The notes beneath the pieces were generated by a model. The model was not told where the DNA came from, did no database searches, and saw only the letters and a program-made list of their open reading frames with translations. This document shows positions 5,999-10,588 of a stretch of 19,876 nt of DNA, piece after piece (the first letter of the stretch is position 1; the number at the start of each line of letters is the position of its first letter). The DNA comes from a virus (taxonomy: Duplodnaviria > Heunggongvirae > Uroviricota > Caudoviricetes), in the IMG/VR virus record IMGVR_UViG_641736225_000038. One strand, given 5' to 3'. A program made the translations under genes and the position numbers.

Positions 5999-6415
5999 GT
6001 GTCTCAACCACTTTCGGAAATATTGACATGGGATGATGAACAATGGGAGGTATTTGTCCATGATTGGCTTATTGTCTGTAAATCAGATGATTACCCGTGG
6101 AGCGAACGTTTGGGAGGAGCTGGAGATAAAGGTAGAGACGTTGTTGGATATAAATCGGATCCTAACGTAGAAGGTTATTCTTGGGATAATTATCAATGCA
6201 AACTGTACAAAAAAAGTTTAGGGTTCTCTGATGTTGTAGTTGAGTTTGGAAAACTTATCTATTTTACTCTGAATGGTGATTATCCCATCCCTCAGAAGTA
6301 CTTTTTTGTGGCACCCTATGATTTATCTACTACATTTTCTAATTTATTGAAAAATAAAAACGAGCTTAAAAAAGCAGTCCTTGATTCATGGGATTCAGCA
6401 ATTTCAAAAAAATAA
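5999..6415 (+). CDS. Mrr-like (PD-(D/E)xK, Mrr_cat-type) restriction-endonuclease-domain protein, 138 aa; probably the N-terminal part of a frameshifted effector gene
   Basis: GTG start at 5999 with AAGGAG 10 nt upstream, 3 nt after the int stop. Motif ...LGGAGDKGRDVVGYKSD...(25 aa)...YQCKLYKK fits the G-x-D-x-G-x-D ... Q-x-K active-site pattern of Mrr-type nucleases. AT-rich. Ends in an A7 tract where the next ORF begins in another frame. Confidence 0.55.
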   Translation: MSQPLSEILTWDDEQWEVFVHDWLIVCKSDDYPWSERLGGAGDKGRDVVGYKSDPNVEGYSWDNYQCKLYKKSLGFSDVVVEFGKLIYFTLNGDYPIPQKYFFVAPYDLSTTFSNLLKNKNELKKAVLDSWDSAISKK

Positions 6416-7005
6416 CTAAAAAGATTGATATTCCATTAGATGATGAAATAAAAAAATATATTGAGGATTTTGATTTTAGTATTTTTTACTCTCTACCCTT
6501 ATCATTGATTTTAAATGATATTGCAAATACACACCTTTATTTTAAGTACTTTAACGAGCTGTATGTCGTGAGAATCCCTCCAAATGAAATTCCAACATAC
6601 AATTCAAAAAAAGAGTCTGTATATGTTAATGCACTGCTTCAAGCCTATTCAGAGCATGGAAATAAAACTTATAGTTCTTTCTTAGAGCTTGATGATCCAT
6701 ACAGACGACACTTTAATAATAGTAGAAATGATTTTTATTTTGCATCTTCGCTTGAGGTTTTTGTCCGCGAAGTATTTAAAGATGATGTATTCAAAGCATT
6801 GAAATGTTACATTTCATCTTCAATTGAACCCGTCTTTTATGAAGACCATAATTATGCATTTATTAGGTGTAATGCAGTCTTGAAGCAGGCTGTTCTGACA
6901 CCAATTGCACATTCAGTACTATCAAAAATATGTGAAGCAAATGATAAAAAAGGAATATGCCATCATTTGGTTAATGATGGTGAAGTAATTTGGACGGTGA
7001 GATAA
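6388..7005 (+). CDS. Hypothetical protein (205 aa); probably the C-terminal continuation of the upstream nuclease ORF
   Basis: ATG 6388 is immediately preceded by an in-frame TGA (6382-6384), has no SD and overlaps the upstream ORF by 28 nt. One extra A in the A7 run (6401-6407) would fuse the two ORFs into about 343 aa. Stop TAA 7003-7005 overlaps the next ATG (TAATG). Confidence 0.5.
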   Translation: MGFSNFKKITKKIDIPLDDEIKKYIEDFDFSIFYSLPLSLILNDIANTHLYFKYFNELYVVRIPPNEIPTYNSKKESVYVNALLQAYSEHGNKTYSSFLELDDPYRRHFNNSRNDFYFASSLEVFVREVFKDDVFKALKCYISSSIEPVFYEDHNYAFIRCNAVLKQAVLTPIAHSVLSKICEANDKKGICHHLVNDGEVIWTVR

Positions 7006-7463
7006 TGGTTAGAATTTATAATTCAAGTTTAGAAGTGGCATGTCGAATGGCGAAAGTGCTCGTCGCTATTTATCCTTCTTCATTAAGCCTTGAACGGCTT
7101 ATTTGTTTTGATTTTATTTTAGTAAATCTTAAGGATTTTTTACCTGAAGAGATTAGTCTTCATCCTCCAATACCCCGTAGAGATGCTCAGTTAGCCCTAA
7201 AACGAGAGATTGTTTTAGAATCATTGGCTTTGTTGCAAGGCTATGAACTAGCCTCAAAAATTTATACACATCGTGGTTTTGTATATAAAGCTTCTGAAAA
7301 AACATATGCATTTACAAATTCTCTACATAATGAATATGTTGCGCAGATGGAGCATAATATAAATTTGGTGGTTAAGTTATATAGTGATATTCCTGATGAG
7401 CAGTTGCAATCAATTATAAAAAATAAAATTGGCAAATATGATATGGAATTTAATTATGAATGA
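7005..7463 (+). CDS. Small hypothetical protein (152 aa), candidate middle component of the cargo module
   Basis: ATG at 7005 overlaps the upstream stop (TAATG coupling); the track's TTG at 6990 is an alternative. AT-rich with no recognisable motif. Its stop overlaps the start region of the ATPase gene. Confidence 0.5.
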   Translation: MVRIYNSSLEVACRMAKVLVAIYPSSLSLERLICFDFILVNLKDFLPEEISLHPPIPRRDAQLALKREIVLESLALLQGYELASKIYTHRGFVYKASEKTYAFTNSLHNEYVAQMEHNINLVVKLYSDIPDEQLQSIIKNKIGKYDMEFNYE

Positions 7464-7895
7464 CAATTTTTTTACGTTCAGAAAAATAAAGGTAACCGGA
7501 TTCAATAAATTAGATGCTATAATTGAATTTGGTTCTAAATTGACTATTTTATATGGTGGTTCTGACTCTGGAAAAACATACATATATTATTTGATTCGAT
7601 ATTTATTAGGGAGTGAAAAACTAAAAAATAAAGATATCGATCATGCTCAAGGTTATGATTTAGCCTATCTGGAATTTAATTTTCAAGGTAGGGTAATGAC
7701 AATTGAGAGGTCTCTTCAGGATAGCGCCCATTACAGATTATATGATTCGAGCATTGAAAATGTTAGTGAAGCTAATCTGTTGATGGTTTTTTCCAAAAGT
7801 GCTTCGTCTAAAAAGAGTTTTTCATCATACTTTTATGGTAGGTTGAATTTCAAAGAGGCTAAAGTAAGAACAAACTTAAGTAATACTCTTCATAA
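7456..7895 (+). pseudogene. 5' fragment of an SMC/RecF-like ABC ATPase gene, truncated by IS629 insertion
   Basis: MNDNFFTFRKIKVTGFNKLDAIIEFGSKLTILYGGSDSGKTYIYYL...: N-terminal head-domain pattern with Walker A GGSDSGKT. The reading frame runs straight into the IS terminal repeat at 7896; the ORF-track tail ...NEPPRVSWRVFYL is IS-encoded. Start could also be ATG 7438. Confidence 0.7.
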
Positions 7896-7937
7896 TGAAC
7901 CGCCCCGGGTTTCCTGGAGAGTGTTTTATCTGTGAAC

Positions 7938-8828: not shown

Positions 8829-9151
8829 TTTTTCCAGAGGCGGTCGAACTCCGCCTTCGCAAAATAAGCGGAAGCCTGGCGAAGGATATCGTTACTGCGG
8901 CGCAGTTCACGATTTTCACGTTCCAGCTCTTTCAGACGCTGACGTTCAGCGCTGGTGAGCCCACCATCACCGCCCCCGGTATCCCGCTCATGCTGGCGAA
9001 CCCAGACACGCAGAGTCTCCGGCGTACAGCCAATCTTTGGGGCAATGGAACAAATTGCCGCCCACTGTGAGTCATATTCATCCTGACTTTCCAGAACCAT
9101 ACGAATCGCCCGCTGACGGACTTCGGGGGAAAAACGAGTATTTTTAGTCAT
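8825..9151 (-). CDS. IS3-family transposase OrfA (HTH), IS629-type
   Basis: [60 protein letters not shown]...[39 protein letters not shown] plus leucine-zipper region typical of IS3 OrfA; GAGG-containing RBS upstream. Confidence 0.9.
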
Positions 9152-9208
9152 CCTGTTTACCTCTTTCTCAGGGAGTTTAGTCTCCAGGATTTCCGGGGCG
9201 GTTCATAA

Positions 9209-10022
9209 ATTTAATCTTAATAATGTTTTTGAATTTTTTTGTATTGATGAATTAAGAGTGTTAACTGAGAAGTCGTTAATTCTTTCTGATATTCCTAGCG
9301 AGGAGACAAAAAGAAAGTCTGAATTTAAATTCCTTTTAACTCAGAGAGATGATACTAACTCCTTAGCAGAAAAACCAAATAAAAAAGCAAGATATTTTTA
9401 AAAAAATCAAATTGCAAATATTTATGAGGAATTGAAAGCGCAATTAATTTATCCTGAATATGATCAAGTCATTGTTTCAAGAGAACTTGAGAAAGTAGAG
9501 CAAGATATTGAATCATCGAAAGATATATTGAAAGGTATTGTTGATGCACTTGATGATAAGAAGCAATTATTAAAAGAGTTAAGTGATGAATTATATTCAA
9601 TCAGTGACAGGGAAAAATACTTATCATTACTCATTGAAAGATTTAGTCTTCTTAAAGACCAATACTTTATAGATCTACAAAGAATAGATGTTGTATCACA
9701 GGCGAATTTCTATTTAAATAATTTTGCAGATATTTATTGTGAGTTCTGTAATACACCGCAAAAAAAAGAAAATGAAATATCATATGATGATTGTTTTTTG
9801 TCGTGTAATGCAGAAAAATTGAAAATCAAAAGCCAGCTGAAAGGATTAATTGAATCAATCGGATCTAATGTTCGCGAACATGAATTAATTATGTTAAGAA
9901 AAAATGATGTTAATGAAATTTATCAATCAGAAAAAAGTGATTTTAAGACGTTAGAAGATAAAAATATAAAACAATACATTCATCTCTTGAATCACTTTAT
10001 GAATATAAAGACAATCTTTTAA
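9209..10022 (+). pseudogene. Central coiled-coil segment of the disrupted SMC-like ATPase gene (includes ORF 9432-10022)
   Basis: After removing the IS and one TAA copy, the ATPase frame continues ...NTLHKFNLNNVFEFFCIDELRVLTEKSL... to an in-frame TAA at 9399-9401, then stays open in the same frame through 9432-10019. Charged heptad-like sequence (LEKVEQDIESSKDILKGIVDALDDKKQLLKEL...) with CEFC (CxxC, zinc-hook-like) near the middle. Confidence 0.5.
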
Positions 10023-10588
10023 TGGATCACACAAAACATAGCATTCTATCTTCATTACAAGATAAAGAAGATGATGTTGACGAACTTAAATACTCCGCCG
10101 AGGACTTTGACTCCTTAACAGTAGCTGATTTGTATGATATAGAAATAGCGATGCAAGACTTTTTGAATGATATAAATTTTGAAAATTCTAAAGATAACAA
10201 AGTGCGATTTGACGAAGATACATATGACTTTAATATCAATGGGAAACGCCGAGGAATGTTTGGTAAAGGTACCCGTGCAGTAATGCATGCTATATTTACC
10301 ATTTGCTTTGCGGAATTTTTATCAAGAAAAGGGAATCCATTCATTGGATTTGTTGTGCTTGATAGTCCATTAGTGACGCACTTTGATAAAGATAGAGGGG
10401 GTTCTCTATCGGATGTTAATAGCGTCAGTCTCAGTGATTCATTTTATCACGCATTAATCAAAAGGGACTATAATTTCCAGATTGTAATTCTTGAGAATAA
10501 AGGTCCGACGTTCCAAATAAAAATTAATGATGCAAATAAAATCCATAACTTAAATAAGAATGGAAGCTCTGGTTTTTATCCTGTTTAA
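10022..10588 (+). CDS. C-terminal ATPase head segment (188 aa) with Walker B-like motif; likely 3' part of the same disrupted ATPase gene
   Basis: ...NGKRRGMFGKGTRAVMHAIFTICFAEFLSRKGNPFIGFVVLDSPLVTHFD...: signature-like G-x-G-x-R followed about 25 aa later by hydrophobic-hydrophobic-hydrophobic-hydrophobic-D (FVVLD). Starts with ATG overlapping the upstream stop (TAATG) in the -1 frame, which is also open for 20 codons upstream. Confidence 0.5.
   Translation: MDHTKHSILSSLQDKEDDVDELKYSAEDFDSLTVADLYDIEIAMQDFLNDINFENSKDNKVRFDEDTYDFNINGKRRGMFGKGTRAVMHAIFTICFAEFLSRKGNPFIGFVVLDSPLVTHFDKDRGGSLSDVNSVSLSDSFYHALIKRDYNFQIVILENKGPTFQIKINDANKIHNLNKNGSSGFYPV

Follow-up and report, generated by a model that had tools for sequence, protein, structure and literature searches.

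Evidence for a pseudogenized short Lamassu operon in the integrase-psu hotspot of the P4-like satellite Sp2 of Escherichia coli O157:H7

Gene Content of the Locus

We analyzed a 19,876-nucleotide stretch of viral DNA (IMG/VR record IMGVR_UViG_641736225_000038; "the window" throughout) and in particular the block at 5999-10588, which carries, in pieces, the three genes lmuA, lmuC and lmuB of a Lamassu system, a defense system of the ABC-three-component (ABC-3C) kind. The block contains one insertion sequence (IS) and several open reading frames (ORFs), as follows (protein lengths here and below are in amino acids, aa):

5999-6415, plus strand: 5' fragment of lmuA, Mrr-like PD-(D/E)xK nuclease domain (D43, D47, Q66-C67-K68); matches PADLOC LmuA; premature stop after a frameshift
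6388-7005, plus strand: 3' fragment of lmuA, linker and ABC-3C C-terminal domain CTD6 (Pfam CTD6, 7.7e-30; PADLOC LmuA)
7005-7463, plus strand: lmuC, ABC-3C middle component 2, 152 aa (Pfam MC2, 5.4e-30; PADLOC LmuC PDLC03871, 156 positions, 2.9e-36)
7456-7895, plus strand: 5' fragment of lmuB, truncated by the IS; N-terminal ABC head, Walker A GGSDSGKT at 7555-7578
7896-9205, minus strand: IS629/IS1203, IS3 family, 1310 bp (RefSeq "IS3-like element IS1203 family transposase", with a programmed frameshift)
9209-9398, plus strand: continuation of lmuB past the IS, head/coiled-coil transition, in frame with 7456-7895 once the IS and one copy of the target duplication are removed; matches the Proteus homologue P0001
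9402-9964, plus strand: coiled-coil region of lmuB with a CxxC zinc-hook motif (CEFC, 9738-9749); matches PADLOC LmuB
9965-10588, plus strand: 3' fragment of lmuB, return arm of the coiled coil, then the C-terminal ABC head (Walker B FVVLD-S at 10349-10363)

All three genes read in one orientation (plus strand) through overlapping or coupled junctions, as the original prediction had it: the lmuC ATG overlaps the stop of lmuA (TAATG) and lmuB starts at 7456, overlapping lmuC by 8 nt. Only 3 nt separate the stop of the upstream integrase gene from the start of lmuA. Every ORF and motif named in the original prediction was found where that prediction had placed it.

Over an IS-excised 3.3-kb query taken from the 5999-10588 region, the window matches E. 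coli O157:H7 strain M1300706002 at 100% identity, and the ORF layout of the window is that of the RefSeq gene map for the surrounding 20.6 kb in that strain. The annotation of strain Sakai calls this region "prophage Sp2, P4-like phage." The block is bordered by:

4814-5995, plus strand: tyrosine integrase of P4 type, forming the left border (Pfam Arm-DNA-bind_3, Phage_int_M and Phage_integrase; RefSeq annotation)
10998-11270, minus strand: delta (Ogr/Delta; Pfam Ogr_Delta, 1e-16), within the right border delta-psu-sid (10998-12576)
11276-11827 and 11824-12576, minus strand: psu and sid (Psu-like), right border of the hotspot (Pfam Psu, 4.8e-42 and 7.1e-10)

In the P4-like satellite Sp2 of O157:H7, the block at 5999-10588 is thus cargo of the hotspot that int and delta-psu-sid enclose, and the assignment of this interval to the int-psu defense hotspot held up: the P4 core genes int, delta, psu, sid, alpA and the alpha primase-helicase were all matched by Pfam in the window, as were Ash and DUF5375 proteins. 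The block had also been described as AT-rich and foreign to the backbone, which the base composition bears out (GC content 0.26-0.37 over 6001-8000 and 9001-10500, vs. 0.50-0.56 over the backbone at 11001-12500 and 13501-17000); the IS within it has a GC content of 0.54-0.55. The same cargo occupies the interval from int to delta-psu-sid in two further loci as well (L005, from Pantoea alhagi, and L006). According to Johnson et al. (2024; PMC11754643), the Psu of this element is only ~31% identical to P4 Psu.

Assignment to the Lamassu Family

The PADLOC matches of the fragments tile single LmuA, LmuC and LmuB profiles in order. For LmuA (PDLC03852, 336 positions) the 5' ORF covers positions 10-140 (9e-41) and the 3' ORF 141-333 (3.9e-44); for LmuB (PDLC03863, 610 positions) the three stretches cover 3-199 (1.3e-49, with the IS-excised N-terminal 210 aa), 210-412 (5.4e-22) and 428-608 (5.1e-37).

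The effector is an Mrr-like nuclease, as its homologues, motif and fold indicate. The motif sites GDKGRD (D43 and D47, at 6125-6139) and QCK (Q66-C67-K68, at 6194-6202) keep these residues invariant across 40-59 homologues, and Mrr_cat was matched by 6 of 40 full-length homologues (best 1.6e-6), because of which the predicted Mrr-type PD-(D/E)xK nuclease with a C-terminal extension can be considered right. A sequence profile of LmuA found no solved LmuA chain in the PDB; the modelled structure of an intact homologue (P0038), on the other hand, gave fold matches to solved LmuA at a sequence identity, over the structural alignment, of ~8-13%. The C-terminal extension is the ABC-3C docking domain: Pfam CTD6 was matched in the window protein and in 40/40 LmuA homologues, and in solved Lamassu complexes the C-terminal domain (CTD) docks LmuA onto LmuB/LmuC and drives its oligomerization.

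The predicted 152-aa middle protein proved to be LmuC. Its length is identical in four related loci (L004, L005, L006 and L007), and the gene is apparently intact.

LmuB, once reconstructed, is a 606-aa protein with the architecture that had been predicted for an ABC/SMC-type ATPase, and the residues of its Walker A head, CxxC coiled coil and Walker B head (G34, S36, G39, K40, C324, C327, D532, S533 and P534) are invariant in 25 LmuB homologues. The CxxC is predicted to be the zinc-hook motif at the apex of the coiled coil. Pfam recognized AAA_23 in the head (1.9e-07) and, below cutoff, DUF3732 in the tail (5.3e-05). Single-sequence PDB searches with the three reconstructed proteins returned nothing meaningful; only a profile built from the 25 LmuB homologues succeeded, matching LmuB in 9HQU (2e-17; the companion entry 9HQX is given as the LmuACB complex of Salmonella enterica) and the Vibrio cholerae LmuB of 9NY5 (6e-7).

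The same profile also matches Rad50 (1.9e-8) and SMC heads (7.5e-7), as might be expected if the module served a housekeeping or satellite-backbone function, such as Rad50/SbcC-like repair or packaging. This reading has next to no probability: the best matches of all three proteins are Lamassu-specific, the block is AT-rich against the backbone and sits at a variable site, the int-psu hotspot, that has been described in P4-like satellites, and close relatives of LmuB are found outside P4 elements as well (L004, from Proteus mirabilis). Rad50/SbcC and SMC proteins likewise have an ABC head that a coiled coil, bearing a CxxC hook, divides in two; LmuB differs from them in its much shorter coiled coil, in its partners (LmuC and LmuA, not Mre11/SbcD or a kleisin) and in its location in a mobile-element hotspot.

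Short Lamassu systems are defined by a ~600-aa SMC/Rad50-like LmuB whose Walker A motif is Gx4GK[S/T] and whose Walker B motif is hhhhD[Q/S/T/E], joined in some by CxxC (Haudiquet et al., 2025; PMC12663957). The locus shows a ~600-aa LmuB with Walker A, Walker B and CxxC, an adjacent LmuC, and an LmuA effector with a CTD and an Mrr-family nuclease. Thus the ABC-3C/Lamassu-type layout that had been proposed is now backed by the PADLOC profiles for all three proteins, by Pfam CTD6 and MC2, by the LmuB profile in the PDB and by the LmuA fold matches. The accompanying suggestion of a divergent or undescribed variant did not survive: profiles match at 1e-36 to 1e-49, the genes bear ABC-three component names in RefSeq already (Krishnan-type ABC-3C naming) and the locus has been published and tested as "Lamassu-var" (see below). 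The Lamassu family, the subtype, the hotspot and the locus itself are all already known, from published work as well as from the profile sets of PADLOC and Pfam.

Four Lesions Interrupt the Operon

Intact relatives show what the operon looked like. LmuB is a single 606-aa ORF in Proteus mirabilis (86% identity, no gaps) and in Pantoea alhagi (74%), and locus L006 carries, in the same order, int, LmuA (335 aa), LmuC (152 aa), LmuB (606 aa) and delta-psu-sid of a P4-like element. The lengths reconstructed for the window (335/152/606 aa) are those of the single-ORF intact homologues; compared with them, the window carries four lesions: a 1-bp deletion in lmuA and, in lmuB, the IS, a nonsense codon and a second 1-bp deletion.

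The ORFs at 5999-6415 and 6388-7005 had been proposed to form one gene, and a single added A does fuse them. The break lies in the A7 run at 6406-6412 (plus strand; sequence CAAAAAAAT; ancestrally A8), and the repaired 335-aa protein aligns without gaps to the intact LmuA of L006 at 87% identity, with SAISKKITKK at the junction vs. SAISKKISKK in L006. Read directly, the L006 sequence has an interrupted run at this point (TCAAAGAAAATAAG); an AAG>AAA change probably made the slippage-prone A8 run, from which one base was then lost.

The IS629/IS1203 element sits after lmuB codon 147. Its ends are TGAACCGCCCCGG...CCGGGGCGGTTCA, it is flanked by a 3-bp TAA target duplication (7893-7895 and 9206-9208), and its orfA and orfB are minus-strand ORFs of 108 and 296 aa. 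The deletion of 7896-9208 that had been proposed for rejoining the ATPase is exactly right, being the IS (7896-9205) plus the second TAA copy; the frame then reads SNTLHKFNLNNVFEFF, vs. SNTLHKFNLNNVLEFF in the intact Proteus homologue. The two remaining lesions of lmuB had gone without mention in the original prediction. At 9399-9401 (plus strand) a TAA nonsense codon replaces an ancestral TTA (Leu), where the Proteus homologue likewise has L. At 9960-9964 (plus strand) one base is missing from an A5 run (ancestrally A6); the next frame reads KYKTIHSSLESLYEYKDNLLMD, vs. KKYKKIHLLLESLYEYKDNLLMD in the Proteus homologue P0001. A T-run at 10013-10022 was also considered as the site of this frameshift and was ruled out by the alignment with the Proteus homologue, which places the break in the A-run at 9960-9964.

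It is therefore very likely that the block is what is left, in pseudogenized form, of an lmuA-lmuC-lmuB operon of the short (type II) Lamassu (ABC-3C) kind whose effector is Mrr-like, carried as hotspot cargo of Sp2 and inactivated by these four lesions, and not the working candidate anti-phage system that had been put forward. A functional Lamassu would need its three genes intact and co-expressed, no component being dispensable according to Millman et al. (2022), and in the window lmuA is frameshifted and lmuB has the IS, the nonsense codon and the frameshift; the Sakai record labels ECs_0293 a pseudogene. The only Walker A-bearing LmuB product in the window has ~147 native residues followed by IS-derived read-through. 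With the nuclease and docking domains separated and the Walker A product stopping at ~147 native residues, the Lamassu mechanism would be impossible in the window.

Adenine runs are known slippage sites. Slippage during transcription or translation of the A7 run (CAAAAAAAT), which is conserved in all carriers, could in principle bypass the lmuA frameshift and yield some full-length LmuA, giving a low-expression or phase-variable defense. We give this explanation a very slight chance. The intact homologue, with its interrupted run (TCAAAGAAAATAAG), needs no slippage, and lmuB would have to be corrected independently as well, at a run of only five adenines (A5); O157:H7 would further need read-through of the TAA codon, and the window removal of the 1310-bp IS as well. 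Mutation of the SMC ATPase site, moreover, is reported to abolish defense in Lamassu-like systems (Millman et al., 2022).

Some of the relatives raise questions of their own. In Pantoea alhagi CP019706 (L005, 8945-9550) and Proteus mirabilis (L004, 9113-9550), an LmuA of only 201 or 145 aa, with CTD6, is called beside the intact 606-aa LmuB; lmuA of these two loci may have been independently truncated or miscalled. The inverse case is found in another enterobacterial island (L009, 3096-8918; L010, 1769-7681), where a related Lamassu of 334/159/609 aa, with an LmuB ~45% identical, adjoins fragments of Psu and an integrase split in two. In that island it is the satellite that has decayed, its cargo genes being called full length.

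Population Spread and Order of Decay

Of 5426 complete E. coli genomes, 309 have the locus, with at least 99% identity in every copy, and every listed carrier strain with a stated serotype is either O157:H7 or O55:H7. Searches by megablast and blastn with the locus, or with its 45%-identical relative L009, returned no other E. coli relative among complete genomes outside the O157/O55 lineage. The repaired A8 allele of lmuA was found in 0/309 E. coli records, as was the repaired A6 allele of lmuB (0/309; these allele counts refer to the complete E. coli genomes matching at the sites, 308 genomes in 309 records). Since no repaired allele occurs in O55:H7 or O157:H7, both frameshifts predate the split of these lineages.

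The other two lesions are less widely shared. The codon at 9399-9401 is TAA in O157:H7 strains Sakai and M1300706002 and TTA in O55:H7 strains RM12579 and TB182A, a distribution that rests on these four genomes. The IS junction was found in only 3 of the 5426 complete genomes (M1300706002, 6535WT and 6535NalR); this IS629/IS1203 copy (7896-9205) could serve as a strain-lineage marker. O55:H7 strains differ from one another in the extra lesions that their lmuB carries, and its fragments measure 394 + 188 aa in TB182A and RM12579, 379 + 188 aa in DEC5B and 159 + 173 + 188 aa in CB9615.

The order of events would then have been the two shared frameshifts first, followed by the nonsense codon of O157:H7, with the IS as a recent arrival confined to three genomes. 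This distribution of lesions has the appearance of neutral decay after early inactivation. Because old, shared frameshifts are joined by a later nonsense codon and a recent IS, the locus reads, on these sequence comparisons, as a decaying pseudogene array rather than a working defense.

Comparison With the Published "Lamassu-var"

Johnson et al. (2024; the Domainator study, NAR, PMC11754643) reported that a cluster "Related to Lamassu systems" was the commonest in E. coli Psu-integrase hotspots (259 instances, 3-9 coding sequences), and cloned one as "Lamassu-var" from O55:H7 strain TB182A (CP038295, 4116517-4120474). Their 259 hotspots are consistent with the 309 genomes found here. The cloned interval is the same locus in TB182A, comprising delta and five ORFs (a split lmuA, lmuC and a two-piece lmuB). 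It shares with the window the int/lmuA-lmuC-lmuB/delta-psu-sid context, ~99.7% DNA identity and the A-run frameshifts of both lmuA and lmuB; the window adds the TTA>TAA change and IS629 and lacks an extra A-run deletion present in O55:H7. The text of PMC11754643 makes no mention of frameshifts or pseudogenes and treats the locus as a new variant. Since the Lamassu-var clone carries frameshifted lmuA and lmuB (and also delta), the published activity test used broken genes. The content of the clone interval (within L008, CP038295 4114500-4122500), delta together with the frameshifted lmuA and lmuB, may affect how its weak phenotype is read.

Several points weigh against the conclusion that the locus is a dead Lamassu of this kind. 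One is that the O55:H7 clone, whose lmuA is frameshifted as here and whose lmuB is frameshifted twice, was reported to cut the plaque size of T2, T4, T6 and RB69 (Johnson et al., 2024; PMC11754643), an effect that was weak, was seen at the highest dilutions only and concerns the O55:H7 allele only. Residual activity of the fragmented O55:H7 genes is possible, because it was this frameshifted clone that lowered plaque size. A second point concerns the effector: the original prediction had made its case depend on Mrr_cat and SMC/ABC ATPase matches, and Pfam and PADLOC did find the SMC/ABC matches, along with those to Lamassu, whereas the window's own N-terminal domain scored only E = 0.2 against Pfam Mrr_cat. 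Further, the activation mechanism has been solved for Cap4-type effectors only, not for this Mrr/CTD6/MC2 clade, and the likeness to the Lamassu-Mrr of Millman et al. (2022) is one of features, not of compared sequences, between a system that works and a window copy that is broken.

The smaller T-even plaques also support taking the fragments as a functional five-ORF "Lamassu variant" in which LmuC, the SMC fragments (two or three), the CTD6 protein and the nuclease domain would work as separate polypeptides and come together again, as split ABC/SMC heads can; the five-ORF arrangement in all 308 complete E. coli genomes with the locus, and the survival of lmuC and of all motif residues, point the same way. 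We nevertheless regard such a variant as decidedly unlikely. Every break lies in or next to a homopolymer run and is repaired by one base, with products that are free of gaps and of the same length as the intact homologues; the boundaries of the lmuB fragments vary among O55:H7 strains and O157:H7, which is unexpected for a selected architecture; and in the window the IS and the nonsense codon cost ~70 residues of continuity and isolate the Walker A head. The phenotype itself was weak and confined to the highest dilutions, the accessible text gives no active-site mutant controls, and the clone includes delta. That the fragmented Lamassu of O55/O157 keeps a real, if weak, anti-phage activity by either route, A-run slippage or reassembly of split LmuA and LmuB, seems to us quite improbable; if it were so, this would be a naturally split or phase-variable Lamassu kept by all 308-309 complete E. 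coli carriers, of which the window, having the IS and the nonsense codon, would even then represent a null allele.

The abundant "Lamassu variant" of P4-like hotspots is thus best read as a canonical lmuA-lmuC-lmuB operon that was frameshifted before the O55:H7/O157:H7 split and has been decaying since. To the statement of a 2026 preprint that P4-like satellites seldom carry defense pseudogenes, this locus provides a counter-example, with a backbone that looks intact and a decayed cargo in ~309 complete genomes, and Sp2 should not be counted as a source of working Lamassu in O157:H7.

Related Systems and the Mechanism of Intact Relatives

Among the closest described counterparts is the subtype Lamassu-Mrr (Millman et al., 2022; DefenseFinder; the short-Lamassu clade in PMC12663957), which shares with the locus an LmuA made of an Mrr nuclease and an ABC-3C CTD, an LmuC, and an LmuB of ~600 aa in which Walker A, CxxC and a Walker B of the form hhhhD[S] are all present. 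Millman et al. (2022) list Mrr among the Lamassu effector domains and describe liquid-culture infections with Lamassu-Mrr; in the Lamassu-like operons that they tested, effector-domain mutation and lmuC deletion, like the SMC ATPase-site mutation, abolished defense. The Vibrio cholerae DdmABC/LmuABC complexes (9NY5, 9NYG and 9NXX) differ in having a Cap4-type effector and an LmuB without the zinc hook, vs. the CxxC here; in Salmonella enterica LmuACB (9HQU and 9HQX) the effector is described only as a PD-(D/E)xK nuclease.

For the intact relatives a mechanism can be proposed from the solved Vibrio and Salmonella complexes (PMC12663957; bioRxiv 10.1101/2025.03.14.643221), by extension to the Mrr/CTD6/MC2 clade. 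Two Rad50/SMC-like LmuB protomers, whose coiled coils are folded and bear a CxxC zinc hook, would together with one LmuC hold one LmuA inactive by its C-terminal domain. Ends of double-stranded DNA or phage replication intermediates, combined with ATP-driven engagement of the heads, would release LmuA, which would then form tetramers through its C-terminal domain and so assemble an active nuclease site. The released LmuA would degrade DNA non-specifically, and the infected cell would die (abortive infection).

Neighboring Genes and Other Features

Two further features of Sp2 were noted:

10615-10648, plus strand: terminator-like hairpin past the lmuB stop (consensus match only)
14879-17212: alpha-type primase-helicase (Pfam)

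A tRNA gene search of the window found none. Directly downstream of the alpha primase, at the other end of Sp2, lies a 318-aa ORF (17345-18301, minus strand; GC content ~0.29-0.33) that gave no Pfam or PADLOC match and only a marginal PHROG match (0.0039); it may be a second cargo gene.

To the left of Sp2, where the lambda-like prophage Sp1 is annotated directly adjacent in Sakai, the window carries a GIY-YIG ("LEM-3-like") protein of 274 aa (1511-2335, minus strand) that matches the single-gene defense PD-T4-3 (PADLOC PDLC04031, 2.3e-140). This gene looks intact and adjoins the pinE invertase and tail-fiber genes. An AraC-family regulator (3108-3851, plus strand; PHROG 1450, 1.2e-95) sits just left of Sp2 in an AT-rich stretch (GC content 0.33-0.40), with the PD-T4-3 gene on one side and a truncated transposase-like fragment on the other.

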